Positions 11,844 through 63,840 of a stretch of 64,000 nt of DNA are shown piece by piece; the first letter of the stretch is position 1; each line of letters begins with the position of its first letter. The DNA comes from Bacteroidota bacterium (lineage in GTDB: Bacteria > Bacteroidota > Bacteroidia > Flavobacteriales > Weeksellaceae). Made by a program: the position numbers and the translations under genes. Location of the stretch: the NCBI GenBank assembly GCA_023419095.1, contig JAEZYN010000030.1, positions 3,309-67,308 on the forward strand. Reading direction: 5' to 3'. The notes beneath the pieces were generated by a model. That model had not been told where the DNA came from and ran no database searches. It saw only the letters and a program-made list of their open reading frames with translations.

Positions 11844-12083
11844 TTATTTGTTTACTACCTCTTCAATATAGGTAATAGCGTGACCAACAGTGGTAATTTT
11901 TTCTGCTTGGTCATCTGGGATCTGAATGTTGAATTCTTTTTCAAATTCCATGATAAGTTCTACAGTATCCAGGGAGTCTGCGCCTAAGTCGTTGGTAAAG
12001 CTAGCTTCTGGAGTTACTTCTGTTTCCTCAACGTCGAGTTTATCAGCAATAATAGCTTTTACTCTTGATGCAATGTCTGACAT
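11844..12083 (-). CDS. acpP: acyl carrier protein
   Basis: 79 aa with the phosphopantetheine site [11 protein letters not shown]. Confidence 0.95.
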
Positions 12084-12211
12084 AGTAATTTATTTTTATT
12101 AGTTGTTAATAGCTGCAAATATATAAAATTCTTTGGCAATCGGAATTATTTTGCGAAAATATAGAGGCAATAGCCGCACCATTTACACGTTATTCCCGAA
12201 GTTTTTTAATC

Positions 12212-12239
12212 AAAAAAAAAGCCCGATTTTCATCGGGCT
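12212..12239 (-). terminator. rho-independent terminator downstream of the T9SS-substrate gene
   Basis: The minus strand reads AGCCCGAT-gaaa-ATCGGGCT followed by T9. Confidence 0.8.
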
Positions 12240-12258
12240 CTCTGATGACTATTCAATG

Positions 12259-16405: not shown

Positions 16406-17494
16406 TTAAACATCGTAATTCAGCATCACCACATTCGTGGTTGGGTGGCATTGGCATGTGAGTACGAAACCGCGCTCCACTTCATCCTCTGTCAGCGCGA
16501 AATTTTTCTCCATGAAAACTTCGCCTTCCATCACCTGCGCTTTACACGTGCAGCACACGCCGCCTTTGCAGGCAAACGGCACAGGCAGTTTTTCGGTTAG
16601 TGCCTGGTCTAAGATACTGTTTTTCTTTGAATTAAGATGAAAAGAATATTCGTCGTCATCTATAATTAAAGTTACCATGCTTTCAAGATTGGGGATCGCT
16701 TTGAACTCGTCGCTCATCTCAGCATTCTCTTCATCGTCCGGTGCGGCGTAATATTCATATAAAATCTGAAGCGACGGCACTTTTTTCTCATTTTTAAGAT
16801 AGCCGGATACGCTTTTTATCATTTCAGACGGGCCACAAATAAAATAGGTAGCCTCGCGAACAGGAATATCTTTGAATCTTTCAAGCAGTTCATCCAGTTT
16901 TGGCGCGCAGATTCTGCCTTCAAAAAGCTCGTCTTCAAAATGTTTTTCACGTGAGAGGAGATAAACTACTTTCAGCCTTCCGGCAAATTTTTCCACCAGC
17001 GCATCAATATCTTCTTTAAAAATAATGTCGTTAAGACTTCTGTTGCTGTAAAACAGATAAGCCTTGCTTTTCGGTTCCTGGTATAATGCTTCTTTCAGAT
17101 TTGATAGCACCGGCGAAATACCGCTTCCCGCAGCTAAGCCCACATATGTTTTTTCGTTTGAAATATGATGATTGGTGTAAAAATGACCCGCAGGCGCGGA
17201 AACTTCCACCATTTGGCCGGGAAAAATATTCTCATTTAAAATGGAAGAGACGCGGCCGTTTTCCAGATGTTTTACCAGAATTTCGAGATCTGTGTTTTCT
17301 TCAGTCGGAGCATTGACGATGGAATAAGAGCGTCGCAGATCTTCGTCGCCTGCAAAAAACCTTACATTCAGATATTGGCCCTGCTTAAAAGAAAACTCCG
17401 GCTTCAGATGTGCAGGGATCTCGAAGGCAATATTTACGGAATCGTTTGTTTTCTTCGCTACTTTGGTCGTTTTTAAAAGATGAAAATGATGCAT
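16406..17494 (-). CDS. paaE: phenylacetate-CoA oxygenase/reductase subunit (FNR-like flavin/NAD domains plus C-terminal 2Fe-2S ferredoxin)
   Basis: 362 aa with FAD-binding RSYS, NAD-binding GSGISP and the plant-type ferredoxin cluster CKGGVCCTCKA...C. Confidence 0.85.
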   Translation of the reverse strand: MHHFHLLKTTKVAKKTNDSVNIAFEIPAHLKPEFSFKQGQYLNVRFFAGDEDLRRSYSIVNAPTEENTDLEILVKHLENGRVSSILNENIFPGQMVEVSAPAGHFYTNHHISNEKTYVGLAAGSGISPVLSNLKEALYQEPKSKAYLFYSNRSLNDIIFKEDIDALVEKFAGRLKVVYLLSREKHFEDELFEGRICAPKLDELLERFKDIPVREATYFICGPSEMIKSVSGYLKNEKKVPSLQILYEYYAAPDDEENAEMSDEFKAIPNLESMVTLIIDDDEYSFHLNSKKNSILDQALTEKLPVPFACKGGVCCTCKAQVMEGEVFMEKNFALTEDEVERGFVLTCQCHPTTNVVMLNYDV

Positions 17495-17614
17495 ATAAAA
17501 AGCTGACTACATTATTAAAAGTGTGTGAAACAAATATAATGTTTTTTGCGATTGGAGAATTTAAGTAAAGTGATGGCACGCAAATACACGTTTTTGACTT
17601 TGGTGCACTAAATT

Positions 17615-17675
17615 CGGAAATTATGTCTTAAAACATTCACATTCAAATATTTAAAACGGAAATTATGTCTTTAAA
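17615..17675 (+). promoter_or_regulatory. pair of 19-bp direct repeats upstream of clpB (candidate operator)
   Basis: CGGAAATTATGTCTTAAAA (17615-17633) and CGGAAATTATGTCTTTAAA (17657-17675) start 42 bp apart. They lie about 85-145 bp upstream of the clpB ATG. Confidence 0.4.
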
Positions 17676-17759
17676 GTGTTTGATTTTCTGCTGAAAGTAT
17701 AATTTTTGCTGCCAACACGATATCATTTCAAATCAAACTTTTAACACAAAATTTTTAAT

Positions 17760-20351
17760 ATGAACTTAAATCAATACACCGTAAAATCTCAGGAAGCCAT
17801 CCAGAAAGCGCAGCAGATCGCGATGGAATTCGGCCACCAGATGATCGAGCCACAACATTTGCTGGAAGGAATTCTGCAGGTGGACGAAAACATTTCAGAA
17901 TTTCTGATGAAGAAATCTGAGGCTGAACTGAGTCTCGTGCGCGAGCGCAACCGCGAAAACCTCGAAAAACTTCCCAAAGTAGAGGGCGGCAACATTTATC
18001 TTTCCCAGACATCTAACCGGATTTTGCTTGATGCTCCCAACGTGGCCAAGAGAATGGGTGATGAATATGTTACGATCGAACATTTGTGGCTTTCGCTGCT
18101 TGACGTGAACTCCGATGTTTCAAAAATGCTCAAAGATATGGGCGTGACAAAAAAAGGCGTCGAAGTTGCGATAAGCGAACTGCGCAAAGGTTCAAAAGCC
18201 ACTTCTGCGAGTTCTGAAGAAACTTATCAAAGTTTAAATAAATACGCTAAAAACTTCAATGTTTTGGCGGCAGAAGGAAAACTTGATCCGGTTATCGGCA
18301 GGGACGAAGAAATCCGCCGTGTGCTACAGATCCTGTCGAGAAGAACTAAGAATAATCCAATTCTAATTGGCGAACCGGGCGTGGGGAAAACCGCGATCGC
18401 GGAAGGAATTGCGCACCGGATCATCTCTGGCGACGTTCCCGAAAACCTGATGGATAAAACACTTTATTCACTGGATATGGGTGCGCTGATTGCCGGCGCA
18501 AAATATAAAGGAGAATTCGAAGAGCGCCTGAAATCTGTTGTAAATGAAGTCATTAAATCTGAAGGTCAGATTATACTCTTCATCGATGAAATTCACACTT
18601 TGGTCGGTGCTGGTGGCGGAGAAGGCGCGATGGACGCGGCGAATATCCTTAAACCCGCATTGGCGCGCGGCGAACTGCGTGCTGTGGGTGCAACGACATT
18701 AAATGAATATCAGAAATATTTTGAGAAAGACAAAGCGCTCGAAAGACGTTTTCAGAAGGTAATGGTGGAAGAACCGGATACGGAATCGGCGATTTCTATC
18801 CTGCGTGGAGTTAAAGACAAATATGAGGCACACCACAAAGTGCGCATTAAAGATGAAGCCATCATCGCCGCAGTAGAGCTGTCGCAGCGGTATATTACTG
18901 ACCGCTTTTTACCGGACAAAGCAATTGACCTGATTGATGAAGCTTCCGCGAAACTGCGAATGGAAATTAATTCTAAACCTGAGGAACTGGACGTTCTCGA
19001 TCGGCGACTTATGCAACTCGAAATCGAACTCGCAGCCATATCCAGAGAAAACAATGAAATTAAAATCAATCATTTAAAAGAGGATATTGCCAAAGTTTCT
19101 GAGCAGCGAAACGAAATCAATGCGAAATGGCTTAAAGAAAAGCAGAAGTCGGAAGATCTTACCGCAATTAAAAAAGAAATCGAAGCCCTGAAACTTGAGG
19201 CAGAACGCGCGTCCCGCGTCGGTGATTATGCGAAAGTGGCGGAAATTCAGTATGGTAAGATTAAAGAAAAAGAAAGCGATCTCGAAAAACTGGAACTCGA
19301 AATGCAGAACCATCAGAACGAGCTGATTCAGGAAGAAGTTACCGCTGAAAATATCTCGGAAGTCATTTCCAAATGGACCGGAATTCCGGTAACCAAGCTT
19401 CTGCAGAGCGAACGCGAAAAACTTCTTCACCTCGAAGACGAACTTCACAAAAGAGTAGTCGGGCAAAACGAGGCCATCGAATCCATTGCGGATGCCATCA
19501 GGAGAAACCGCGCAGGCCTAAACGACGAAAGAAAACCGATTGGCTCCTTCCTTTTCCTCGGTACTACCGGCGTCGGTAAAACGGAACTCGCAAAAGCTTT
19601 GGCAGAATATCTTTTTAACGACGAAAACAATATGACGCGAATTGATATGAGTGAGTATCAGGAGCGGCATGCGGTTTCACGGCTGGTCGGCGCGCCTCCG
19701 GGTTACGTAGGTTACGATGAAGGCGGTCAGCTGACGGAAGCCGTGCGCCGCAGACCGTATTCCGTGGTGCTTTTAGACGAGATCGAAAAAGCGCATCCCG
19801 ATGTTTTCAATACGCTTCTGCAGGTTTTGGATGACGGTCGGCTGACGGATAACAAAGGTCGCGTGGTCAATTTTAAAAACTCAATTATCATCATGACGTC
19901 GAACCTGGGCTCGCACATAATCCAGGAAAACTTTGAAAATATAACTGATGAAAACGTTTCTGAAGTTGTGGAAAAAACAAAAGCTGAAGTGTTCGCGCTT
20001 TTGAGACAGACATTGAGACCCGAATTTTTAAACAGAATTGACGAAACCGTGCTTTTCCAGCCATTGAACAAAAAAGAAATTGGTAAAATCGTGCAGTATC
20101 AGCTGCGTGGATTCAATAAAATGCTGGAGAAAAAAGGTATTTTCATGACGGCGACCGACGATGCCGTAGAATATATAATGAATAAAGGCTACGACCCGAG
20201 TTTTGGCGCAAGGCCTCTGAAAAGAGTTTTGCAACAGGAAGTTCTCAACAGACTTTCGAAAGAGATTCTGGCCGGCAATGTAAACGACGGCGACCGCATA
20301 ACACTCGATTATTTCGATGAAAGTGGCCTTGTATTCAGACCGACTGAGTGA
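17760..20351 (+). CDS. clpB: ATP-dependent chaperone ClpB
   Basis: 863 aa with a Clp N-domain and two AAA+ modules (GEPGVGKTA, GTTGVGKTE). A long coiled-coil M-domain separates them, which distinguishes ClpB from ClpA/C. Confidence 0.95.
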   Translation: MNLNQYTVKSQEAIQKAQQIAMEFGHQMIEPQHLLEGILQVDENISEFLMKKSEAELSLVRERNRENLEKLPKVEGGNIYLSQTSNRILLDAPNVAKRMGDEYVTIEHLWLSLLDVNSDVSKMLKDMGVTKKGVEVAISELRKGSKATSASSEETYQSLNKYAKNFNVLAAEGKLDPVIGRDEEIRRVLQILSRRTKNNPILIGEPGVGKTAIAEGIAHRIISGDVPENLMDKTLYSLDMGALIAGAKYKGEFEERLKSVVNEVIKSEGQIILFIDEIHTLVGAGGGEGAMDAANILKPALARGELRAVGATTLNEYQKYFEKDKALERRFQKVMVEEPDTESAISILRGVKDKYEAHHKVRIKDEAIIAAVELSQRYITDRFLPDKAIDLIDEASAKLRMEINSKPEELDVLDRRLMQLEIELAAISRENNEIKINHLKEDIAKVSEQRNEINAKWLKEKQKSEDLTAIKKEIEALKLEAERASRVGDYAKVAEIQYGKIKEKESDLEKLELEMQNHQNELIQEEVTAENISEVISKWTGIPVTKLLQSEREKLLHLEDELHKRVVGQNEAIESIADAIRRNRAGLNDERKPIGSFLFLGTTGVGKTELAKALAEYLFNDENNMTRIDMSEYQERHAVSRLVGAPPGYVGYDEGGQLTEAVRRRPYSVVLLDEIEKAHPDVFNTLLQVLDDGRLTDNKGRVVNFKNSIIIMTSNLGSHIIQENFENITDENVSEVVEKTKAEVFALLRQTLRPEFLNRIDETVLFQPLNKKEIGKIVQYQLRGFNKMLEKKGIFMTATDDAVEYIMNKGYDPSFGARPLKRVLQQEVLNRLSKEILAGNVNDGDRITLDYFDESGLVFRPTE

Positions 20352-20531
20352 GAAATTTTAAAAAGAATGCAAAAATAAACATTCTATAAGCCTGATTCTC
20401 AAACCTATTGCATCAAAGTGAGAAAATACATTTTAATTTATTTGCAAATATCAGGATTAATATATTTCTTTGTGCCGTTCTAATGCTTTCATCAGCTGAA
20501 GAATAAATTTTTTTTCATCATTTGTGTTTAT

Positions 20532-20561
20532 CCACCGGCTTCATCACCGGTGGGTTTTTTT
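20532..20561 (+). terminator. rho-independent terminator about 180 nt downstream of the clpB stop
   Basis: CCACCGG-cttcatca-CCGGTGG followed by a T-run (TTTTTTTGTTTTT). Confidence 0.7.
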
Positions 20562-20565
20562 GTTT

Positions 20566-21396
20566 TTAATGGAAGCTTAGTGTGGCCATAACGGGAAAAT
20601 GATCCGACGGATAAAGCAGATTTTCGCGCCGGTCATTGATAATGCGGTGATCAATGCAGCGAAATTTCTGCGTAAAAATATAGTCGATGCGGTCTGTCGG
20701 GATTTTATTGATATCGAATGCTGTAAAAGTTCCTGTTGGCCCGTACGGCGGTTTCGCGCAGTTTTTATACGTGTCCTGCAGGTTTTGGGCTAATATTTTA
20801 ATGGGTTGCGTTTCATCTGTTAAATTAAAATCACCGGTAAGAATTACAGGTAAGGTCTTTGTATTCAATGTTTTAATTTCATTTAAAATCAAACTGGCAG
20901 AATTTTTCCGTGCTACATTTCCGATATGGTCGAAATGCACATTGAACGCCCAAAACTTCTTACCGCCTTTTTTAGTTTGAAATAAAGCGTACGTACAAAC
21001 GCGGTTGTAAGCTGCGTCCCAACCTTTTGAAGGTTTTTCCGGCGTCTCGCTGAGCCAGAAAGTTCCGCTTTGAAGCACTTTCAGTTTTTCGGAATTATAG
21101 ATAATGGCAGAATATTCGCCCTTATTTTTCCCATCGTCTCGTCCCACGCCTACAAAATCGTAGTTTGAAAGTCCAGTTTTGATATCGGTCATCTGCTGAG
21201 GTAAGGCCTCCTGAACACCTAGAACATCCATTTCATAGTAGTTCAGAAGTTTCAGGACGTCATCTTTGCGGTGCTTCCACGCATTTTCTTTGTCAGAATC
21301 CAGCGCGAGCCTGATGTTGAAAGTCATCACCTTCAATTCCTGCGCATTCATATTTAAATAAAATGTTAAAGCCAAAAAAGTAATCAGGTTTTTCAT
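20566..21396 (-). CDS. endonuclease/exonuclease/phosphatase (EEP) family protein, secreted
   Basis: Signal peptide, then VMTFNIR, LGVQEA and C-terminal SDHFPV, which are EEP hallmarks. Confidence 0.8.
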   Translation of the reverse strand: MKNLITFLALTFYLNMNAQELKVMTFNIRLALDSDKENAWKHRKDDVLKLLNYYEMDVLGVQEALPQQMTDIKTGLSNYDFVGVGRDDGKNKGEYSAIIYNSEKLKVLQSGTFWLSETPEKPSKGWDAAYNRVCTYALFQTKKGGKKFWAFNVHFDHIGNVARKNSASLILNEIKTLNTKTLPVILTGDFNLTDETQPIKILAQNLQDTYKNCAKPPYGPTGTFTAFDINKIPTDRIDYIFTQKFRCIDHRIINDRRENLLYPSDHFPVMATLSFH

Positions 21397-52984: not shown

Positions 52985-53018
52985 AAAAAAAACTGCGAAC
53001 AGTGTTCGCAGTTTTTTT
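52985..53018. terminator. bidirectional rho-independent terminator shared by maeB (+) and the giant-gene operon (-)
   Basis: A8-CTGCGAAC-agt-GTTCGCAG-T7. Confidence 0.85.
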
Positions 53019-53070: not shown

Positions 53071-56000
53071 TTAGCAATTTTCACAGCAAACCTCTGTAAT
53101 GCTTGTCAGTTTGCTGGAACGGTAGATTCTGTGCTGGCCGAGGAGATCTGTGAGCGGATTAAGCTGGCTTCGGTTTGCCAGATATTCTTCAACGTACGTA
53201 GCTTCTGATCCGCGTTTGGGATTTTTTTCAAGTTGCCATTTGTTGTCCATCGGAAAAACCTCGACGGCTATCGCGCTGATGCTGTTGCTTCGCGGTAAAC
53301 CCAGTGCTTCCAGCCTATCACCGATTTCCTGCACCAAAATTTTGGCTGTGCCAAGTCTGTGGCCGTTTTCTTTACTATATGCACCATCATTTTGCTTTGA
53401 TTTTTTGGGACGGTAAGGCATTGGGCCTGAATCAATCAAAATATTACGGAAAGACTCGCCATCAGCCTGCATCACCTGGGTATAAAGTGAATACCACAAT
53501 GAAGTATTGGGCGGAAATGCAGTAACATTTTTACCGTTTAGCACAGCGCTCGCGTGTGCTGCCGACAACTCCACATATTTATTTTTACCTAATGGTGAGC
53601 TCACTTCACTACGAACTGCATGGCAAACAAGCTCAGGCGCAGGGTGTTGAACGCCGTTTACTTTTAGAGGCCTGCCATAGCGGGCCTGTGCGGTAGACCA
53701 AACTTCTTTGCGGTGACCTACACGTATTTCATAGGTAAAAAATCCAAAAAGTTCGTCACTGGCGGCGTGAAGACCTGGTGGCAGCGGCAGAAGATATCGT
53801 ATGGCGTTCTCCTGTTCTTCGGGAATCAGCTCCTGCATAACGCCTATACCGGCTAAATCATCATGCATATCAGGGATAATCTCCCGGATTTTTTCTTCAT
53901 TTATATTGAAATGCTGATCTTCAGAAATATTCAAAAGTAAATCGCGGTCAATCCGGCAGAGATACGGGTCAGGTGAATAGGCGAGTATCCGTCCGAAGTA
54001 CGTCGTACGCGGGTTTTCCGGAGCTTCATCAAATTCAAACCACAGATATTTTTGTCTTTCTTCGGAATAACGGTAATTTTCGGTGTCGTGCTGATACGGA
54101 GTCAGCGCCACACCAGCGGAAACAAGTTTCGGAATCTGATGAGGAATAACCGTAACAGGAAGTTCTATTTTTAGCGTTTCCATTTTATCTGAGACTGTTG
54201 CACTATTTTTAAAATTGAGTTCCAGATTATATTCTGCCATCAGAACACGTGGAAATTTTTTCTGAAATTTCTTCGGATCTACAGAATCGAGAAACATGAT
54301 ACGGCTTTGGGTTCTGTCCGCATCCCGCAACATCTGCATGTTAGCAGCATCTTTCAGTTGTATGCTGCCAATTTCAATGAATTCGCTGTCAAAACCATGT
54401 ACTTTGCGCTTTACTATGATGCTGTCTGGTTCAAGTCCCTGCCAGGCCCAGTCACGCAGCAGACTGAAATCTACTGCGACAATCCACCGGTTGAACAGTT
54501 CATTCACCGAAGATAAAGTTACTGAGCCGCTTTCGGGCGCCAAAGAATGCCGGATTTCATTGCTCACGCCAAACTGCACGCGGTTTCCGGGGTGACCTTC
54601 GATCGTGAGGTTATGGGAATGTAAGTCTAAAGCCTCGGCCAGTCTTTTGAGTTCAACCGCTGTGGAATTAATGACAGTTTTCGTGCTCGCGAGTTTTATT
54701 TTATTAATGTCTCCTATTTGAGGCTTATTTTCGGGTTGCAGGTAGAAGGCGCGCAGCCCACCTTTGATTGGCGAGAGAAGTTCGGGCTCGTTTTCTGCAG
54801 TCTTGTAAGCTTTTAAGCTTAAAGGAACTCCTGTAGCCACGAATTTTGCTGCATAGTCATCATCAGCAAAATCTAGAATTGGAATGAAGGTAAGCCTCAA
54901 CTCGCGGGAAGTAGGTAATACAAGTTCATCAGCAGCCTCGTCACCGGTATAGTTATTTAGTAAATCCAGCTGGGTAAAATCTTTATAAATAATTTTTATA
55001 TGTGCCGCCAGATCATAGTTCTCCGCTGCCAGGTTTTTAGGTAGCGGCATTGTTTTTTCCTGCCATAAAATGTAAGCTTCACGTCCGTTTTCTGACAGTA
55101 CGTTATCCATTTCCAGCGATTTCACTTCCACCAGAATTTTAAAACTGTTCACGTCAGGATCGGGCAGGCCAATGGTCTGCTGAGACCTTTCAGAGGGGTT
55201 TGAAGGAATAGAAATCCCATTTATTCTGTCTTTCAGCAGTTGTGCAGCATCAGTATATTTCCCGGTATAGGCCACGCTGGGATAGCTGAGGTCTGGCCTT
55301 TTAATTCTCAACACGTTGTCTTCGCCTAAAATATTTTCTAAGATGCTTGTATCGCGTACTAAGGCAGATGTCTGCATTCTGTGGAAATCATTAATATTTA
55401 AAATTTTTAATGCGCCAGCTTTGATATTCCTGCGAAAATGCGTTTCTGCAACAGGTTTTTGACCGCCGTTAAGGGGTTCACTTTTGATTTCTGGTGACCC
55501 GCCGGAGATGTCCATCAGTCTGATACGGATTTCATAGTCATGTCCGTACCGCAACGGAACGATATGTTGAGGATCCTGATGAAACGGATGAAAGTTTTTC
55601 TTAGGCTGCAGATTTACGGCATTTGCACTTCCAAGCCCTGGCACTGCCACGCGTGGCTTTTCGAGGTGGTGAATTTCCTGGGCTTCACGGTCGGGTATCA
55701 CCATGCACTTGCCATTCCAGGCCGCAAAATACATTGGCAACCAAAATCCTTCTTCCATTGTGTTCCCGTGAGATGAAGGATGCACCTCCGTAGGAAGCTC
55801 AAAAGGTTTGTTTTGCTCAAACAGGATTTCGCCATTCTGCATTTTGATGTCCTGCGATGCCATCACTCTGTTTTGCGAAAACCATGTTGAATCGCCGAGT
55901 TTCCTGATGTCCACTTTATAGCCGAAAACGCCAAGTGGCGCATCAATGGGCAAATCTGTAAGTTCTTCCTTCTGACGCAACTGGCGATTTCCCCAGATTG

Positions 56001-56955
56001 TCAGCTGCTCGTCATCCCAACCCAGTTGCAGGCCCACATCCTTACTCGGCGGATTGCTGGAATCTGATTCCTGCAACATATCCTGATTAACAGGCTGCTT
56101 AGCATGAACTATTTTTGCATAGCCATCATTATACAAGATCGATTCCTGCATCACCGCATCGTAGGTGGCGTTATTTGCCGCAACTTCGGACACAGGAAAA
56201 AGTACCGGCGCAAACAGAATGCGGTCATCTTTCAGAGCGGGTATTCTGGCGGCGTAGATTCCACTTAAAATTGTTTCAAAAGGTGATCCGGCACTGAAAG
56301 TGCTGAAAAGCCATCCTCCTTTTTTGAAGATATCGCCTGAAACGGGAATACTTGCTTTGTAGATCAGACCTGCTTTTTCGGCCAGTGCAGAATTTCGCAG
56401 AATAAAAGCAATCAATTTACCCCAGGAGATATAGCGGCGGTCCGTCAATTCATCTGTGAGCCTTTTGTCTTTATTTTTAATAATACATTCGTACGAATCA
56501 TCTGTCACTGCAAACCGTGTGCGGGCAGAAGTGAAATTGAATGAACTCCTGTAAGTCTGTGGCAAATATTTTTTGATTGCCACATTTTTCGCAGCATATT
56601 TTTCTGACTGTGCCCTGGCGCCCGAGTCTTTGTTTAACGCAGGGTTTTCGCTGATTTGCAGGCCGTCATTAAGTTCCATCTGTGCAATTATTTCCTCGAT
56701 AACCGCTTTTTTATTCACAGGAAGAACCGGTATTTGAGGCGTTTCGGTCTGCGCGACAGCCGAAAAAAGAGGCAGCCCGTCAAGTTGATTGATAATTTTG
56801 ACGTTAAACTGGAAAGCGGCATCTACAAAAGCAGGTGCGCCCGAAGCCAAAGGTTTTCGAAGGTTAATGTTTCGGGGCAGAACGACAATATTAAAATGCA
56901 GCAGGCCCTCACTGTAATGCTGCGGAAATGTGAGGATGCTATAAATTGGTTCCAT
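53071..56955 (-). CDS. giant hypothetical protein B (1294 aa), no recognisable domain
   Basis: Uninterrupted 3.9-kb ORF. Its ATG at 56955 lies 28 nt after the stop of the upstream giant ORF. I see no signal peptide, TM segment, P-loop, HExxH or repeats. It ends ...SITEVCCENC*. Confidence 0.85.
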   Translation of the reverse strand: MEPIYSILTFPQHYSEGLLHFNIVVLPRNINLRKPLASGAPAFVDAAFQFNVKIINQLDGLPLFSAVAQTETPQIPVLPVNKKAVIEEIIAQMELNDGLQISENPALNKDSGARAQSEKYAAKNVAIKKYLPQTYRSSFNFTSARTRFAVTDDSYECIIKNKDKRLTDELTDRRYISWGKLIAFILRNSALAEKAGLIYKASIPVSGDIFKKGGWLFSTFSAGSPFETILSGIYAARIPALKDDRILFAPVLFPVSEVAANNATYDAVMQESILYNDGYAKIVHAKQPVNQDMLQESDSSNPPSKDVGLQLGWDDEQLTIWGNRQLRQKEELTDLPIDAPLGVFGYKVDIRKLGDSTWFSQNRVMASQDIKMQNGEILFEQNKPFELPTEVHPSSHGNTMEEGFWLPMYFAAWNGKCMVIPDREAQEIHHLEKPRVAVPGLGSANAVNLQPKKNFHPFHQDPQHIVPLRYGHDYEIRIRLMDISGGSPEIKSEPLNGGQKPVAETHFRRNIKAGALKILNINDFHRMQTSALVRDTSILENILGEDNVLRIKRPDLSYPSVAYTGKYTDAAQLLKDRINGISIPSNPSERSQQTIGLPDPDVNSFKILVEVKSLEMDNVLSENGREAYILWQEKTMPLPKNLAAENYDLAAHIKIIYKDFTQLDLLNNYTGDEAADELVLPTSRELRLTFIPILDFADDDYAAKFVATGVPLSLKAYKTAENEPELLSPIKGGLRAFYLQPENKPQIGDINKIKLASTKTVINSTAVELKRLAEALDLHSHNLTIEGHPGNRVQFGVSNEIRHSLAPESGSVTLSSVNELFNRWIVAVDFSLLRDWAWQGLEPDSIIVKRKVHGFDSEFIEIGSIQLKDAANMQMLRDADRTQSRIMFLDSVDPKKFQKKFPRVLMAEYNLELNFKNSATVSDKMETLKIELPVTVIPHQIPKLVSAGVALTPYQHDTENYRYSEERQKYLWFEFDEAPENPRTTYFGRILAYSPDPYLCRIDRDLLLNISEDQHFNINEEKIREIIPDMHDDLAGIGVMQELIPEEQENAIRYLLPLPPGLHAASDELFGFFTYEIRVGHRKEVWSTAQARYGRPLKVNGVQHPAPELVCHAVRSEVSSPLGKNKYVELSAAHASAVLNGKNVTAFPPNTSLWYSLYTQVMQADGESFRNILIDSGPMPYRPKKSKQNDGAYSKENGHRLGTAKILVQEIGDRLEALGLPRSNSISAIAVEVFPMDNKWQLEKNPKRGSEATYVEEYLANRSQLNPLTDLLGQHRIYRSSKLTSITEVCCENC

Positions 56956-56983
56956 AATATTTGATTTTAAAAAAAAACTACAG

Positions 56984-59900
56984 TTAGCTGATTTGACGTG
57001 TTTCTTCCCAGGTTTCGGTAAAGCTGATGTTTACCACAAATGCAATAGAAATATCCAGCGCGAAAGTGCATCTCGCAATACAGTTGGTAGGTCCGCCACC
57101 AATTTTTTTCTGAACCTGACCGGCCGCCTCTATTGCGATAGTGATGGTCACGATGCCACCGAGGATTTCTGCACGGCCGCGGAAATAGATAAAAGCACCC
57201 ACCACAAGATCGCCTGAAATCTTCATGTCAATACCCATGATGAATGTGACTGCTACTGAGCCAATCACCGGAAGCCCGACAGCGAGCTCAATGCCAAAGC
57301 CGAATTTAAAATAGAGCGCCGGTGGCGAAGACAGATCCGCCGCCAAGCCCACTTCTGCCCGTCCGACTGCGTAAATGGTAGCCGCAGCCACGCTCACGCA
57401 CATGACACGGATGTCTGCGCCAAGCTCAAGATATGCACCCACGGAAGGCTTGATCTGATCTATTGTTTTCGGAATTTTGATTGGCTGGTTGAAATAAACG
57501 CCCACTTTAAAGTACGCATCCATCTTAAGTGGCGTTGTAGGCGAGTTATAATTGATCGGATCAAATGGAAATTTCACCAGCGGAATTTCTTTGTCAGCTT
57601 TAAATTTATATTCCCAGCTGTCCGCAGAATTGCTCATTGCGATTTTCAGGGCTTGTTTTACGGCTTCCGAAGGTTGCGATGGGTCCAGATTGTTCAGAAA
57701 TTCCAGAATGTCATAAATGGTCTGCAGCGTTTTATCAAGTTTCAGCTGCGGACCGCTGCCAATTGACATACCTGCGTTTTTCTTTTTCTCGTTGCTGAAA
57801 TTTCCGCTGATATACATTAATGGCGTAAAACCGGCCAGATCTACCGCGATGGTGATATTATGCATTTGGTTTGCCCATTTTTCCAAAGATTTAGTGTCGG
57901 TGACGTAATCAATTATTGATTCGTTTGTATTGGCACCGTCTTCGTCAATGGCGGTATATTTAACGTAAATCCGGAAGGCGTCGTTCTCTTCACCTACAAT
58001 ATTAAAATCAAAATTTGTAGGAACTTTGTAATTAAAAGCTTTCTGCACGCCATCCGGCAGCAAGTTCATGGTGGTTTTCGCGAGTTTATCGATTTTTATA
58101 GCGTCGCTAAGATTCGGAAATGGTCCTTTTGAATTCATCAGCCGGAAGCAGTCAGCCAGAAGCGCGGGATCAGAAGTGTATTTTTCGGTCTCACCTTTTG
58201 TATATTCTATTGAATTAAGCAGCAACTTCTGTGTATCGGTATTTTGCAACAACCCATATGTTTTGCTGAACGTTGCTGCGGTATTCCTCAATGCATCAGG
58301 ATAGGCCAGCAGGGTTTTTGTTGAATTTAAGCTGAAAGGTGTCCCGCTGTTTTTAGGCCGAAGGCCGTCTTTTACCAAACCGACGGACGTTCCCGGTTTC
58401 AAATTCTGTACAGAGCCGGAATTTTTATCTACATCTACTACGCTCCAGCTTCCGTCTGCGGGTAATACTACCGATCCTTTCACGGAGGCTACGAACGCGG
58501 GCAGGGAAGTATTATCGTTCTGGTAAGATGCCGACATTTCCACTGCTGTAGTTTTAAATTTTTGCAGCGTATTTTCCACAGGTATCAGCGCATCTATTCG
58601 TCCACTGACAGGGTTCTGACTTTTATTTAAAATTGTTTTTAATATACGCGCCGGAACCGGAACTTCCTGTGGTTTTATCTGAAGATAGCCTTTGAACTGG
58701 GTTCCGGTAATATTTTCGTCTACCGGCTGAAGGTCTGCATCACAGTCAAAATATACGGCGACAAATTCATAATCTACCTTTTTGCCGGGCGCAGACGCCA
58801 GTACAATCGGCACATTTTCATCTAAAAAGTACTCGTTGGCGAATGTTGTGTACTGTCCGCTGATGACGTCGGTATAGTCTTCGCGGATGTTTTTAATCTT
58901 GTACAGACCCTGAACAATTCCGGGGTAAATGTCATACGGATTATTATAAGCCAGCGTTTCGGTCGCGGTAGGCCATGTGAAACTGAAATCAAAAAGACCT
59001 TCGCTTTGGGCCACCCAGCCACTGTCCTCACGGAAGATGACCGCGTTATTGTTGCGCAGGAAGGTGACGGTTCGTGTGACACAGATGCCCCACGGATAAA
59101 TCATGCTCACAGCCTGTACAATTTCGTGTGCGGTCCGTCCTTTCAGCACATCAAATTTTGCCTGCGAAATCGATGCAAATTTCACTGCAGGATTTTTCCA
59201 GTTACTGAATGTGCTTGCACCGTAGCCGGAGAAATCGAAATGTGTTAAAGGTACCCCGCGCGGCTTTTGCGGTGAAAATACATTATTAAATATTTCTGTT
59301 ACCGTTTCTCCGAGTATGCTGATGCCGGGTTGATCTGTCAGGGCACGTAGCTGTTGTGTGGTGCCGGAAATACGCGGTGGCGCCTCGGGATTGGGATCTT
59401 TGTAAGCGGAGATCCTGAACTGTATGCCGCCACGAAATTCCTGGTTTTGAAATTTAAAATTGGGCTGAACAAATTCCAGATGGCCACTGCTGTGCATGGG
59501 TTCGTTTCTGTACGGATAGAGTGTCGCGAACGAATATTTGGCATTTGGCAATGTAAAAAGTACTTTTCCAACAAGATGCTGATTCGTCACAGCTGTACTG
59601 TTCAGGTTTATTTTGAACTGCCTCATATAATCAGCAGGATGGATACGGATCCAATGATTGTCGGTTTGGCTGAAAACAGTAGGAAGTGTATTGGGAGCTT
59701 GGTTTAAAATACCCAAGACCGGCTCCGGTACCGGTGGGTCTCCGGGATTCAGCGGCTCCGGTCTTGGGGTGATATTGTTTACCGGTTCCCAGCTTACGTT
59801 CGGTAGCGTAAGGCCCTGCAGAAAGCCCATCGGTGCCTGCAGATAATTTCTGTTTACCGTAACAATATTTTCACCGGTTACCGTCACATCATCCTGGAAA

Positions 59901-61867
59901 AGTTTACGCATCTCCTCGCGGTTCTGAAGTGACAGGGCGACACCCCAATGGTCGGCCTGTGTACTGACATCAAACAGCATGAAATTGTTCTGAATAGATG
60001 GAACGCCACGGATGCCGGATCTTTCAGCCATTACCGCAAATGCAGGTTTTTCGTTTTCCTCGAAAACGTAATTCATTTTAAAGGTCACCTCCGCCAATAC
60101 AGTTCCGTCAATACTTTTCCAGTTGGTAAAAGATTGTAAAGAGCCTGTTATCTGATCTCTTGTCTGGCGCTCGTTTTTTACATTTGTAGTGTAAGGATGC
60201 GGTAGAGTGGGCAACAGCGAAAGAATATAGAAGTTCAGCAGCAACGTACCTTTATAGATCTCATTCTCGTCTGTGTATTTGCCGCTGAGGTACAGACCGC
60301 TTTCCTTCGTTGTTGTGAAATAAGCATTTTGCAGTGCAAACTGGTATTTTTCGAATTTATTCCCGACCTGATTTGTGTAAACTGTAGTGTCCTGAAGATC
60401 TTCTGTAAGCATGTCGCTGTCGATAATCAGGATGCTTTTCGCATCTTTTGTCAGAATTTTACTGTACAGACTTTTTTTGGAAACTGGATGGACAAACGTG
60501 TTATCGGCGCGCAGCGGTTTGTCGATTAAAAATTCCGTGTCTGCAAATGCACTTACCACATCGCCCGTCTCGCTTTGTGATGCAATGTTGAGTGTTTTGT
60601 AATTCATCAGCCGGACATCGACTGTCATTCGGTCTTTATTTTCCGCCGATTTTTGCCATAAAGTGAGATGATCACGCAGGTAGGCAAAGTCAGCTTTGTC
60701 TGAAGTGAGATAGAAAAAGCCATTAAAAACCATTAACGTACAATTATTAAAATGCGCTTCCGCATTCTGATTCCTTACGCCGTCCCATGTTGCTTTGATT
60801 CCTTTTTTTAAACCTAATGAAAGCAAACCGTTGAATTTTACTTCAACAGATTGGTTGTTTTGCAGCACGCGTGTGGGCAATAGCCAGGTGCTGGATTCAA
60901 TGCCTGCTTCACCTGAAACTGAATAAAGCTGCGACTGAGATCGTCGTACTGAAAACCTCTTTTGATTAGGTGTGAGCGTAAGTGCAAAATAATTTTGTGC
61001 CGGATCCCATCCCAGTGAGTGATCTGTGCAGGTAAACCCGCATTCCCAGTCCACCGTTTTCACTGAAAACTGGCCGATGTCCACAACCAGTAGTCGCCCT
61101 TTGTTTGTTTTTAAACGCAACTTATCTGTCGGTGTAAACGTCGAGTTTTTTCCGTCTAAACCTACACCGCCGTCAGCGGGAGCGTAGGAATTGTCTAATA
61201 TTAAATTTATTTCAAATATTGCCTGACGCGGAACCTGCACGGTATTGTTGCTTAAAATATACGTTCCGCCGAGACTTAAAGTGCCGGAAAGTATCCTCAA
61301 TCCTACGTAAGTAGTTTTGGGCGCTGCCGGATCCACAAGATCTGCCCGAATCCACACATTCCCGCTGCCCAGATTGAGTGTACTTACCCGTGTATTTGCT
61401 ACCAGCAGCCGCGGCAGCCGGACGGGAAGGATAAACGCCGCCTGCTGTTCGTTTGGGAAAAAGATTTTAAAATCATCAATGAATTTATATAAATTGTAGA
61501 AGATCTGGGTACCATCTAACGTAGGGAAGGGACCGAGAACCTTGTCCGGGACGGTAAAAACTTTATTCGCGTCGAAAATCTGATGTGCGCCGAAACGGAC
61601 AGCATTTTCCGGCATCCGCTCAATTTCAAATTCTGGTTTAGCAGCGGCAACTGGGCGCTGTGGTTTGGGAAGCTGGATAGTTCCCCTAAGCCGGCCAGCG
61701 CCTGCAGGTAATTTCGAGAATCGGATTTCCTGAAAATTGGTTTTCGAAGGGCTTGATTTTGCAATGTTTTCAAGCAGGAACTCAAAATGTTTAGGTTGGT
61801 TTTGCTTCGCAGCAGCCAAGTCTAAATCTCGCAACAGTTCAGTTGCAGACTTTACAGGATCTGGCAT
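56984..61867 (-). CDS. giant hypothetical protein A (1627 aa) with a C-terminal hydrophobic Gly/aliphatic-rich module
   Basis: Uninterrupted 4.9-kb ORF. The N-terminus MPDPVKSATELLRDLDLAAAKQNQ... is hydrophilic with no signal peptide. There is one Pro-rich hinge near residue 700. The last ~190 aa hold several 15-22-residue hydrophobic stretches. I see no catalytic or NTP-binding motif. Confidence 0.85.
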   Translation of the reverse strand: MPDPVKSATELLRDLDLAAAKQNQPKHFEFLLENIAKSSPSKTNFQEIRFSKLPAGAGRLRGTIQLPKPQRPVAAAKPEFEIERMPENAVRFGAHQIFDANKVFTVPDKVLGPFPTLDGTQIFYNLYKFIDDFKIFFPNEQQAAFILPVRLPRLLVANTRVSTLNLGSGNVWIRADLVDPAAPKTTYVGLRILSGTLSLGGTYILSNNTVQVPRQAIFEINLILDNSYAPADGGVGLDGKNSTFTPTDKLRLKTNKGRLLVVDIGQFSVKTVDWECGFTCTDHSLGWDPAQNYFALTLTPNQKRFSVRRSQSQLYSVSGEAGIESSTWLLPTRVLQNNQSVEVKFNGLLSLGLKKGIKATWDGVRNQNAEAHFNNCTLMVFNGFFYLTSDKADFAYLRDHLTLWQKSAENKDRMTVDVRLMNYKTLNIASQSETGDVVSAFADTEFLIDKPLRADNTFVHPVSKKSLYSKILTKDAKSILIIDSDMLTEDLQDTTVYTNQVGNKFEKYQFALQNAYFTTTKESGLYLSGKYTDENEIYKGTLLLNFYILSLLPTLPHPYTTNVKNERQTRDQITGSLQSFTNWKSIDGTVLAEVTFKMNYVFEENEKPAFAVMAERSGIRGVPSIQNNFMLFDVSTQADHWGVALSLQNREEMRKLFQDDVTVTGENIVTVNRNYLQAPMGFLQGLTLPNVSWEPVNNITPRPEPLNPGDPPVPEPVLGILNQAPNTLPTVFSQTDNHWIRIHPADYMRQFKINLNSTAVTNQHLVGKVLFTLPNAKYSFATLYPYRNEPMHSSGHLEFVQPNFKFQNQEFRGGIQFRISAYKDPNPEAPPRISGTTQQLRALTDQPGISILGETVTEIFNNVFSPQKPRGVPLTHFDFSGYGASTFSNWKNPAVKFASISQAKFDVLKGRTAHEIVQAVSMIYPWGICVTRTVTFLRNNNAVIFREDSGWVAQSEGLFDFSFTWPTATETLAYNNPYDIYPGIVQGLYKIKNIREDYTDVISGQYTTFANEYFLDENVPIVLASAPGKKVDYEFVAVYFDCDADLQPVDENITGTQFKGYLQIKPQEVPVPARILKTILNKSQNPVSGRIDALIPVENTLQKFKTTAVEMSASYQNDNTSLPAFVASVKGSVVLPADGSWSVVDVDKNSGSVQNLKPGTSVGLVKDGLRPKNSGTPFSLNSTKTLLAYPDALRNTAATFSKTYGLLQNTDTQKLLLNSIEYTKGETEKYTSDPALLADCFRLMNSKGPFPNLSDAIKIDKLAKTTMNLLPDGVQKAFNYKVPTNFDFNIVGEENDAFRIYVKYTAIDEDGANTNESIIDYVTDTKSLEKWANQMHNITIAVDLAGFTPLMYISGNFSNEKKKNAGMSIGSGPQLKLDKTLQTIYDILEFLNNLDPSQPSEAVKQALKIAMSNSADSWEYKFKADKEIPLVKFPFDPINYNSPTTPLKMDAYFKVGVYFNQPIKIPKTIDQIKPSVGAYLELGADIRVMCVSVAAATIYAVGRAEVGLAADLSSPPALYFKFGFGIELAVGLPVIGSVAVTFIMGIDMKISGDLVVGAFIYFRGRAEILGGIVTITIAIEAAGQVQKKIGGGPTNCIARCTFALDISIAFVVNISFTETWEETRQIS

Positions 61868-62002: not shown

Positions 62003-62010
62003 CAAAGTTA
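62003..62010 (-). promoter_or_regulatory. candidate Bacteroidota -7 promoter box upstream of the giant-gene operon
   Basis: The minus strand reads TAACTTTG, matching the TAnnTTTG consensus, about 135 nt upstream of the ATG at 61867. I found no convincing -33 TTTG at canonical spacing. Confidence 0.3.
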
Positions 62011-62076: not shown

Positions 62077-63681
62077 TCAGAACCTGCTGATTACACCCCA
62101 GTGAATTTTGGTATCGCCAAAGCGGATCGGATTGCCAAACTGGTTTCCGTTTGAAATCTGGAAACTCATTAAACCTATAGGCAGGAAAAAATTAAAACCT
62201 AAACCAACGCTGTAAAGTTTAGGTTTTTCGCCCAGAGAGCTATTGCTCAATCCGCCGTACTGACCGAAAATGTCGAAAAAGGCTTGATCACCCACGAGAT
62301 ATCGGTATTCGGCAGTTCCGAAGTAGTAGAAGTCCGCCAAAAGCGTATTTTCATTAAAGCCGCGCAGCGAATTCCAGCCGCCGAATCTCAGCAATTCATT
62401 GGCGGCGAGTTGGGCTTTTGAATTCATAAGGGCCGTCTCCGCGCGGAGATTGAGATAATGATTTCCTTTTACCGCGAAATTCCGTTCTCCGGAAAAGAAA
62501 AAATTGTTCTGCTGTACAGCGTTTAGGTCGGCCGCATAACGTGTGCTTATCAGGTCGGCTTCCGCTCTGATGCGTGTTTTAAACTGGAACAGCGCAATTT
62601 CTGTAGGTTCGGTGAAATCATACCAGATGCCAACACCTTTTTTGTGATAATCGCGTCCTGCGCTATAGAGAGAATCGGTGACCGCGGAAGTCTCGAAATT
62701 TCCGCGAATTCCAATTTTCTGGCGGCTTCCCAAATTTAAATATACTCCGGGCAAAAATTTGAAGTTTGCGTACGTGGAATCCTGGCGGAATACGTTGATA
62801 TTCAGTGCCAGACCTATATTTGAATTCGCTACATATGGAATATCGGTTTTGAGATCGAAAGTCTGTCCGCGATCGGGGTTTCTTTGCCAAAAAACATTTA
62901 CGGTTTCAAAACTGTTGAACATATTTCTGAAATTCACGTTCAGGCTTCCGTTAAAAGTGAACTTTTCATTTTTATCATTACCAAACCCTAAAATTCCGTC
63001 GAAAGTGTTCGACTTTTTCTTCTGAAGAAACAGGAAAATTTGCGTGGAGTCCCGTGTAAAAAGCGTCTGCGGCGGTTTTTCGAGCGTTATAAAAGGATGG
63101 TTTTGCAGCGATTGGTTCAGCCTCGAAAGATTTTGGTCATCGTAATTTTTTCCTTTATAATCTCTTTCGAGATTTTTGATAAAGCGCTTTGGCACTTTTT
63201 CGTAACCACGGACCACAATGGCGTCGAGTTTTCTGCGCGCGCCTTCAGAAACACTAAGTTCGAGCTGCGGTTCACCGTTTTTTAGACCGAGAAACCGCGT
63301 CTTTACCCTGTTAAATGCAAAACCGCGCAGCCGATAATTTTCGCTGATGGATTTTTTTAATGAATCGATGTTTTTGGAGTAGAATTCATGCGGAGATTTT
63401 AAATTCAATGCTACCTCTTCCGTCAGTTTTACGTTGCCTTCATTAAAGCTTTTACCTTTGTCATAAATGATTTCGATTGCAGTTTCTGATTCATTAACGC
63501 TTTTTAATTCAGTGAGATAGAATTTATCCTGTGAAAGCGAATCGAGGAATTTTGCAGCGGTGGCGGAATCTTTCACCACTTTTCGCTGGCCCGTCGAGAC
63601 GTCTGTCAGCCAATATTCTTTTTGCTGCGAATACAGAAAAACGCAACAAAACAGGGCTAAAAGCGCGACGACATGTTTCAA
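62077..63681 (-). CDS. Omp85 (BamA/TamA) family outer-membrane beta-barrel protein
   Basis: The C-terminal barrel carries the loop-6 LRGF motif (GGWNSLRGFNE) and a terminal beta-signal ...IHWGVISRF. An N-terminal POTRA-like region is present. The track ORF starts at 63771. A TTG at 63681 would give a proper signal peptide (M)KHVVALLALFCCVFLYSQQ. Confidence 0.75.
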   Translation of the reverse strand: MKHVVALLALFCCVFLYSQQKEYWLTDVSTGQRKVVKDSATAAKFLDSLSQDKFYLTELKSVNESETAIEIIYDKGKSFNEGNVKLTEEVALNLKSPHEFYSKNIDSLKKSISENYRLRGFAFNRVKTRFLGLKNGEPQLELSVSEGARRKLDAIVVRGYEKVPKRFIKNLERDYKGKNYDDQNLSRLNQSLQNHPFITLEKPPQTLFTRDSTQIFLFLQKKKSNTFDGILGFGNDKNEKFTFNGSLNVNFRNMFNSFETVNVFWQRNPDRGQTFDLKTDIPYVANSNIGLALNINVFRQDSTYANFKFLPGVYLNLGSRQKIGIRGNFETSAVTDSLYSAGRDYHKKGVGIWYDFTEPTEIALFQFKTRIRAEADLISTRYAADLNAVQQNNFFFSGERNFAVKGNHYLNLRAETALMNSKAQLAANELLRFGGWNSLRGFNENTLLADFYYFGTAEYRYLVGDQAFFDIFGQYGGLSNSSLGEKPKLYSVGLGFNFFLPIGLMSFQISNGNQFGNPIRFGDTKIHWGVISRF

Positions 63682-63840
63682 TAGATAAGACTTTGGATTT
63701 CTGAACTCAATATACGCAAGAATATTTTGTTTAATGTAAAGTTTAATGCTGATTTGTACGGAGGTCAACATTTTTCAGCCTTTAATCACTATCTTTATCG
63801 CTGATAAAAAGCGTCTGCTATTGATGTTTTTCCGTGTTTT

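Follow-up and report, generated by a model that had tools for sequence, protein, structure and literature searches.

Genes A and B lie side by side on the minus strand of a 64,000-nucleotide stretch of contig JAEZYN010000030.1 (assembly GCA_023419095.1), hereafter the window, from a Kaistella-like genome of the Bacteroidota, and they encode two giant proteins of 1627 and 1294 residues. Hundreds of bacterial species belonging to about ten phyla carry the same two genes in the same order, and both protein families are new to all of the libraries searched. The pair is an uncharacterised and self-contained protein machine that is probably membrane-active. Our tentative reading of its action is that A and B form a binary membrane-inserting complex with an antagonistic role, in which A engages the membrane through an array of β-strands at its C-terminus. 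Complex formation, membrane insertion and the antagonistic role are all things that we infer, and a soluble structural assembly is nearly as likely as a membrane-engaging complex.

Gene A occupies positions 56,984 to 61,867 and gene B positions 53,071 to 56,955, both with an ATG start as read from the open reading frames and their translations; A comes first and B second. The 28-nucleotide spacer between them (56,956 to 56,983, minus strand) forms an operon junction and contains no terminator-like site, as judged from its sequence and a terminator scan. At the base composition of the window, stops are expected at a frequency of ~0.056 per codon, or one per ~18 codons, and the probability of the observed stop-free runs arising by chance is ~1e-41 for A and ~1e-33 for B. 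Because such runs are so improbable, and because full-length homologues of both proteins exist over a range of identities from 98% down to 24-35%, A and B are real genes and chance is excluded. A first-pass annotation of this DNA, made from the letters alone, had already described two real, co-directional giant frames 28 nucleotides apart, and the coordinates, the stop-free odds and the homologues all bear this out.

Distribution, inheritance and novelty of the pair

More than 1164 homologue clusters are known for B, and the C-terminal 1200 residues of A yield 630 clusters at 50% identity. When one genome was scanned for each GTDB species, at least 473 confirmed stretches emerged; the scan employed two nearby patterns, and the number of genes may lie somewhat below this number of stretches. 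The pair is present in the Bacteroidota, Acidobacteriota, Chloroflexota, Gemmatimonadota, Ignavibacteriota, Proteobacteria, Cyanobacteria, Actinomycetota and Bacillota. Carriers among the Bacteroidota include Pedobacter, Algoriphagus, Cyclobacterium, Weeksellaceae, Chitinophagales, Saprospiraceae and Prolixibacteraceae, and others are found in the Acidobacteriota, Ignavibacteriales, Anaerolineae, Gemmatimonadales, Nitrospirota, Syntrophorhabdales and β-proteobacteria, together with one cyanobacterium and one Mycobacterium isolate.

In essentially every locus of the ~90 examined A is followed by B, also on plasmids, and wherever enough DNA was available in the 86 fetched loci an A homologue lies directly 5' of B on the same strand (locus L022 is truncated upstream of B). 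The single possible exception to this rule, locus L067, is weighed below. Short A-B spacing recurs in other loci, and B-like genes of 1202-1235 residues also follow A in a distant A subfamily with 24% identity. Full-length identity across phyla amounts to 33-37%. Since the pairwise identities of A and B correlate with r = 0.955 (2145 locus pairs from 66 loci), the two genes are inherited and transferred together. The survey of synteny and co-occurrence in other genomes that the first-pass annotation had called for has been run, and the conservation of the pair leaves its claim unrefuted.

The flanks of the pair are unrelated between loci. When the genes in ~8-10 kb on each side of the ~90 loci were clustered, no third gene was common beyond genus-level synteny, and the 142 immediate neighbours (~75 loci) carry 152 different Pfam families, the commonest of which, GerE/LuxR, is found in 9 of the 142. 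Megaplasmid copies occur in four organisms, namely Bacillus toyonensis, Tistrella, Microvirga and Candidatus Chlorohelix. The A and B proteins of the Mycobacterium isolate are 62-65% identical to those of a β-proteobacterial metagenome-assembled genome (MAG), those of the Chlorohelix plasmid 54-67% identical to those of a Chitinophagaceae MAG, those of Rhodocyclaceae 65-66% identical to those of Syntrophorhabdales, and those of 'Limnohabitans' MAG contigs (L052 and L058) 79-87% identical to those of Algoriphagus (L049 and L080). By these figures, several cross-phylum pairs are far too similar for vertical descent. The sparse and patchy distribution, the unrelated flanks, the megaplasmid copies and the cross-phylum identities of 62-87% indicate a horizontally mobile accessory module that is stably kept within genera once acquired.

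The earlier view of the pair as resident and vertically kept thus holds only locally. Synteny is preserved within genera such as Algoriphagus, and the composition of the pair is native to the window, as had been remarked, with a GC content of 0.44-0.46 against 0.40-0.46 in the rest; across phyla, the pair is patchy, moves horizontally and has plasmid copies. The similarity of the 'Limnohabitans' contigs to Algoriphagus reflects either mis-binning or a very recent inter-phylum transfer.

Neither protein is recognised by existing libraries. Scans of A and B against Pfam, NCBIfam, PADLOC and PHROGs gave no match, and the same is true of sequence and profile searches of the PDB. Lenient Pfam scans of 15 A homologues, 34 phylum-diverse B homologues and six family-consensus segments gave no consistent match, the single weak hit being to Ig_J in one A homologue (E = 0.035). 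A search for hydrophobic helices, signal peptides and lipoboxes in A and B found none, and transmembrane helices, enzymatic motifs and YD motifs are lacking in both. Membership of a catalogued defence system was rejected, as neither protein matches a PADLOC-DB v2 model at E <= 1. The two proteins are not paralogues of each other (BLASTP E = 0.27; hhalign probability 1%), in agreement with the first-pass annotation, and full-text searching of the literature found no description of the pair. Judged by exclusion, the pair is provisionally rated as lying outside every known kind.

The description of both proteins as unclassifiable has survived every library and structure search run, including the comparison with characterised families such as TamB/AsmA, contractile-injection proteins and Tc toxins. 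The accompanying list of absent motifs holds for the signal peptide, lipobox, Walker A and HExxH motifs, but A does have GxSxG strings (GTSVG at 1159 and GMSIG at 1366), neither of which is conserved in the family. Similarly, the claim of a single GxxxxGK string overlooked a second one in A, at 524, which is not conserved in the family either.

Predicted architecture and possible activity

A is a β-rich protein, and its full-length homologues are nearly all 1500-1850 residues in length. The N-terminus is hydrophilic and helical and includes a conserved amphipathic helical segment. The most conserved internal core, defined by invariant columns, spans residues 851-960 (58,988 to 59,317, minus strand; block conservation 0.69-0.75) and harbors the motifs DFSGYGASTFSNW, GRTAHE, YPWG and DSGW in that order, with very low AlphaFold confidence. 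The C-terminal segment, residues 1447-1627 (56,987 to 57,529, minus strand), is among the most conserved stretches of A (0.60-0.76), and is conserved also in the Bacillus and Chloroflexota homologues. AlphaFold predicts here 8-10 consecutive amphipathic β-strands of 15-19 residues each, joined by tight turns and folded in a barrel-like manner. Gly, Ala, Ile and Val are over-represented in the segment, and the two faces of its strands have mean Kyte-Doolittle values, over 68 homologues, of +2.2 to +3.3 and -0.7 to -1.8. The β-moment is 1.1-1.7, as opposed to 0.3-0.7 over most of the remainder of A. In length and amphipathicity these predicted hairpins would suffice for spanning a bilayer, as those of β-barrel pore formers do, and the segment as modelled fits a membrane-inserting or lipid-binding β-element.

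The AlphaFold model of A covers residues 428-1627 and was built on an alignment of 18 sequences, which stayed shallow because a further homology search with an alignment of A, run with a word prefilter, gave no extra sequences. Its Foldseek matches are almost all transmembrane β-barrels. The model matches OmpG and the EspP barrel with a target-normalised TM-score of 0.42 and a probability of 0.85-0.91, and other matches are to ushers, LptD, porins and the amphipathic β-belt of ApoB; the scores of all these matches are weak. Mean-field direct coupling analysis of the C-terminal domain, directed at strand pairing and barrel closure, was dominated by gap artefacts (Meff 121).

The AlphaFold2 model of B, made for residues 1-1200 from an alignment of 102 sequences, is confident, with a predicted local distance difference test score (pLDDT) of 87.9 and a predicted template modelling score (pTM) of 0.72. 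It contains an N-terminal α/β domain (residues 1-330; 55,966 to 56,955, minus strand), delimited by invariant columns and modelled secondary structure, and then a series of immunoglobulin (Ig)/fibronectin type III (FN3)-like β-sandwiches, which in the modelled secondary structure covers residues ~545-1200 (53,356 to 55,323, minus strand). The extreme N-terminus forms a conserved β-strand of the fold and is not a signal peptide. When the model was compared with the PDB and BFVD by Foldseek, the matches were to generic FN3/Ig types, including cytokine receptors, complement macroglobulin (MG) domains and phage FN3 proteins; because the query-normalised TM-score was <=0.14, B is without a global structural analogue. 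Of the structure predictions and searches proposed by the first-pass annotation, the confident model of B resembles only generic Ig/FN3 proteins, and the poor model of A gives weak barrel-like matches.

Within the N-terminal domain of B, K129, Y155, C157, W178, R187, D266, H284, Q287 and D315 are invariant in 34 sequences from many phyla; D315 belongs to a GWDDEQ motif in which E316 is nearly invariant. The model places C157 in a helix and H284 in a β-strand. Only three cysteines of B are invariant in the 34 diverse homologues, C157, C1111 and C1290, as are H284 and H1081. The conserved C-terminal tail, residues 1266-1294 (53,074 to 53,160, minus strand), was identified from alignments and from the C-termini of homologues and lies outside the AlphaFold model. 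Its pattern is ...RI(L/Y)R(T/S)S.L..V...CC..C, which at the end of B reads ...RILRTSPLT.VP.VCC.DC, and the invariant Cys is found 1-6 residues before the end of the protein. The invariant Cys and His residues could be a catalytic centre or a metal site, and the tail cysteines may serve for metal binding or as a site of modification.

These residues are also the basis of an enzyme-plus-substrate or sensor-plus-effector reading, which we regard as unlikely, and in which the N-terminal domain of B would be a Cys/His hydrolase or transferase that processes or activates A, in analogy to protease-activated pore formers. The invariance of C157, H284, Q287, D266 and D315, the near invariance of E316 and the placement of C157 and H284 in helix and strand speak for it. 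The 127-residue spacing between C157 and H284 recalls papain-like enzymes, a resemblance that we take as a lead only. Against this, no member or consensus matches a peptidase or transglutaminase family, no protease-like structure is found among the Foldseek matches, and the invariant Cys/His residues, joined by C1111, H1081 and C1290, may instead be the ligands of a structural metal.

A and B make up a self-contained, co-inherited two-gene module that is sparse but very widely distributed and that moves horizontally. In the binary-complex reading, which we put forward tentatively, the two proteins, both made without secretion signals, would assemble into one heteromeric complex. A would be a large all-β subunit whose C-terminal array of amphipathic β-hairpins binds a lipid membrane or enters it, forming a β-barrel pore or other perforating module, or else an amphipathic β-sheet anchor. 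B, in which the N-terminal α/β domain carries the invariant Cys/His cluster and the Ig/FN3-like sandwiches come after it, would be the obligatory partner and might be a scaffold, a regulator or the subunit that binds the target. Ig/FN3-rich proteins without signal peptides are typical of lysis-released particles or toxins. The likeliest role would be antagonistic, in that a foreign membrane would be damaged after release, or the cell's own membrane would be damaged in abortive defence. At a more doubtful level, the pair could represent a new, horizontally mobile class of binary machine built of new folds, comprising a giant subunit with its own multi-hairpin β-barrel perforating domain and an Ig-rich partner that controls or targets it; with the same reserve, this machine might be a new toxin or abortive-infection effector operating in both monoderm and diderm phyla.

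Several points weigh against the binary membrane-inserting complex. Neither protein matches a known pore-former, gasdermin or toxin family. The model of A is poor (pLDDT 59.6), and its barrel-like matches have low TM-scores and weak E-values. The C-termini of A and B are their most conserved parts, unlike those of polymorphic toxins, and the level of full-length cross-phylum conservation points to a machine that is constrained at many interfaces, and not to a weapon that evolves fast. The interaction of A with B is proposed from gene pairing and co-divergence, and in locus L067, from a Saprospirales MAG, the 535 bp that lie 5' of a full-length B contain no match to A. Defence genes are not clearly enriched among the 142 immediate neighbours, where TIR is found once and WYL and AbiEii twice each. 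Finally, the amphipathic β-pattern of the A C-terminus would be no less expected if this segment were the core of a soluble β-sandwich.

The last point leads to the possibility that A and B form a large soluble assembly away from membranes, for example a cage, a lattice, a fibre or a storage/inclusion body, which would be intracellular or lysis-released and in which the C-terminal strands of A would provide a hydrophobic β-sandwich core or an oligomerisation interface. This is again a tentative reading, and it accords with the almost entirely β nature of both proteins, with their lack of secretion signals, transmembrane helices and enzymatic motifs, with the compactness of the B model (pTM 0.72) and with the mostly housekeeping character of the flanking genes. 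The strong full-length conservation also suggests many packing interfaces. On the other hand, the C-terminal segment of A is unusually hydrophobic and rich in Gly and Ala compared with the rest of the protein, its strands are uniformly ~16 residues long and joined by tight turns, and membrane barrels are the structures that the A model resembles most. A sparse and horizontally spread distribution would also be unusual for a basic element of cell structure.

If the membrane-active machine is real, the pair constitutes a large and strongly constrained portion of bacterial 'dark matter', consisting of two families of ~1300 and ~1600 residues, each with hundreds of clusters in about ten phyla, always together and invisible to the libraries. 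The module is compact (two genes in ~8.8 kb) and autonomous, and is therefore experimentally tractable. Solving the structures of A and B could reveal new folds, and possibly a new route from the cytoplasm to a membrane-active β-barrel, with a bearing on toxin biology, phage defence and protein engineering.

Comparison with known systems

As regards a possible mode of action, β-barrel pore formers with a partner protein and giant multi-subunit toxins come nearest to the pair, by analogy only. The former include the β-pore-forming toxins of the aerolysin and haemolysin type and the bacterial gasdermins. As in these proteins, the hairpins of A are amphipathic, ~16 residues per strand, with one lipid-like face, and A is made without a signal peptide, adjoins an obligatory partner gene and has a sparse, horizontal spread. 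However, no sequence or profile match to them exists in Pfam or PADLOC. Known pore formers also contribute one or two hairpins from proteins of 250-500 residues, whereas A would contribute 8-10 strands per protomer at the end of 1600 residues, and B, unlike the partners of protease-activated pore formers, has no recognisable protease or sensor domain.

The Tc (ABC) toxins likewise comprise very large adjacent subunits without signal peptides and with Ig-like domains of the receptor-binding type, and the pair is found in a Tc-like setting, which includes a Bacillus toyonensis megaplasmid and bacteria of soil and water. In contrast to these toxins, A and B contain no TcA, TcB, TcC, RHS/YD, SpvB or neuraminidase-like domains. 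The Tc C-terminus is toxic and variable, while the C-termini of A and B are conserved, and the Tc channel is α-helical, while the candidate membrane element of A is β. Teneurin/RHS structures appear among the Foldseek matches of the A model at noise level, with a probability of 0.02. Membership of the Tc class was rejected on the lack of Pfam matches and YD motifs and on the conserved C-termini.

The wedge of the phage baseplate (gp6/Baseplate_J with gp7/gpI) is a further example of two adjacent, large, structural-looking proteins with Ig/FN3 domains, and a reading of A and B as a degenerate phage-tail or contractile-injection module resembling the baseplate draws on several leads. UniProt gives three B homologues the automatic name 'Baseplate J-like protein', phage tail proteins often contain FN3/Ig arrays, Foldseek gives weak matches to the T5 tail tip and phage FN3 proteins, and there is the weak Ig_J match in one A homologue. 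This reading is now largely refuted and is very improbable. The Pfam model Baseplate_J (PF04865) matches none of the named proteins and none of 34 other members, and hhalign of the B profile against P2 gpJ gives a probability of 3%; for these reasons the automatic names are unsupported. There is no baseplate structure among the best 50 PDB matches in Foldseek, and sheath, tube, spike and gp25 genes recur neither among the genes predicted in the ~8-10 kb flanks of the ~90 loci nor among the Pfam families of the immediate neighbours. Membership of the contractile injection systems was rejected accordingly. Searches of 50,697 phage genomes and of 2.9 million viral contigs (IMG/VR) found no relative of B, and a phage origin was rejected on this ground.

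Autotransporters resemble A in being giant proteins with a β-rich passenger-like region that ends in ~10-12 amphipathic strands, and the EspP barrel mentioned above is one of their number. They differ in that A lacks a Sec signal peptide, a match to the Pfam Autotransporter family and the terminal aromatic residue of the signal recognised by the β-barrel assembly machinery (BAM). The A family ends instead in ...ETRQIS/A. The pair, moreover, occurs in Bacillus, a monoderm without type V secretion. Assignment to the type Va autotransporters was rejected on the missing signal peptide, the missing Pfam match and the C-terminus.

The remaining comparison arises from an Omp85-like gene (62,077 to 63,771, minus strand) that lies upstream of A on the same strand, an arrangement that had led the first-pass annotation to suggest a functional link. 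In the corresponding reading, A and B would serve envelope biogenesis or secretion jointly with the Omp85 protein encoded next to them, in the manner of TamA/TamB or of two-partner secretion. An Omp85 gene followed by a giant β-rich protein is indeed reminiscent of TamA/TamB and AsmA-like proteins, with their long β-sheets and hydrophobic face, and besides the window its closest relatives, Kaistella sp. 97-N-M2 and Marnyiella, have this arrangement. A is also similar in size to TamB proteins (1259 residues in Escherichia coli), and its model matches the barrels of LptD and ushers. The adjacency is not conserved, however: Omp85 is a neighbour in two of the ~88 other loci, those of Kaistella sp. 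97-N-M2 and Marnyiella, and no homologue is found in the other ~86; the proposed link to it is not supported. Carriers of the pair include Bacillus, a monoderm that lacks an outer membrane, as well as Mycobacterium and Chloroflexota, which have envelopes unlike those of classical Gram-negative bacteria. TamB has no second giant partner, whereas A is always accompanied by B.

A has no N-terminal signal anchor or two-partner-secretion (TPS) domain, there is no TamB, AsmA or DUF490 match in Pfam or NCBIfam, and the hhalign probability for the A profile and E. coli TamB is 0.07%. Because its homologues are conserved in Bacillus and it carries no aromatic BAM signal, A is unlikely to be an ordinary outer-membrane protein. 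It also has an upstream region of its own, of 209 nucleotides, with a promoter-like box. This box, TAACTTTG (62,003 to 62,010, minus strand), is located 136 nucleotides 5' of the ATG of A, and since it matches the Bacteroidetes -7 promoter consensus, TAnnTTTG, it is a candidate from which A may be transcribed independently. The Omp85 reading is thus largely refuted, and we consider it the least probable of all. Membership of the TamB/AsmA class was rejected on the profile results, the missing signal anchor and the variable Omp85 neighbour, and that of two-partner secretion on the absence of a signal peptide, a haemagglutination-activity/TPS domain and a conserved Omp85 neighbour. Of the three functional classes originally thought to fit, the Omp85-linked envelope machine is consequently disfavoured, whereas a toxin and a defence module remain candidates.

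Neighbouring genes and variation among loci

In the window, the pair is convergent with maeB, which encodes malic and PTA_PTB domains. A bidirectional intrinsic terminator with a 15-bp stem and T-runs on both strands (52,986 to 53,018) ends both the A-B transcript and maeB. A partial nadD is found at the window edge beyond the Omp85-like gene, and this context as a whole is as it had first been described.

The Omp85-like protein shows weak POTRA, BamA and ShlB matches only, those to ShlB and POTRA_2 being sub-threshold, and because of this weakness it is regarded as a divergent Omp85 paralogue. Its open reading frame is probably over-called by ~30 codons, as homologues have 534 residues and align from residue 30/31. 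The signal-peptide-like sequence LKHVVALLALFCCVFLYS starts just after the point at which this alignment begins.

Even in Kaistella sp. 97-N-M2 and Marnyiella, the downstream side of the pair differs from that of the window. In Kaistella sp. 97-N-M2 (locus L091), the region downstream of B (locus positions 16,800 to 20,878) contains only spurious-looking frames, judged by their appearance to be rRNA-operon-like, where the window has maeB. Because maeB is lacking there, the downstream boundary of the pair varies within the genus.

PAS-LuxR regulators flank the pair in several Bacteroidota. Proteins of ~230 residues are encoded beside it in nine Bacteroidota loci of several families (L027, L032, L036, L037, L059, L082, L084, L085 and L086), at ~1660-2470 upstream of A or ~12080-13260 downstream of B. 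They share the sequence NLMISVFD..NKFLYCNDSF..ILGY, cluster with LuxR-type regulators and may be lineage-specific regulators of the A-B module.

A small number of loci depart from the standard arrangement. B is split into frames of 136 and 1132 residues in Parapedobacter koreensis (L017, 7989-11,963), and A into 611 and 1208 residues in an Ignavibacteriales MAG (L020, 2513-7949); either split may reflect a frameshift, a pseudogene or an assembly error. In L044, L050 and L054, 0.8-1.2 kb separate A from B, and a few loci have widened junctions or opposite-strand frames of 100-470 residues between A and B, as in L025 (6454-7872), which may be operon insertions. In the distant subfamily (L093-L095, 8947-9150), a frame of 67 residues, possibly a small accessory gene, follows a MerR-family regulator gene and stops one base short of A.

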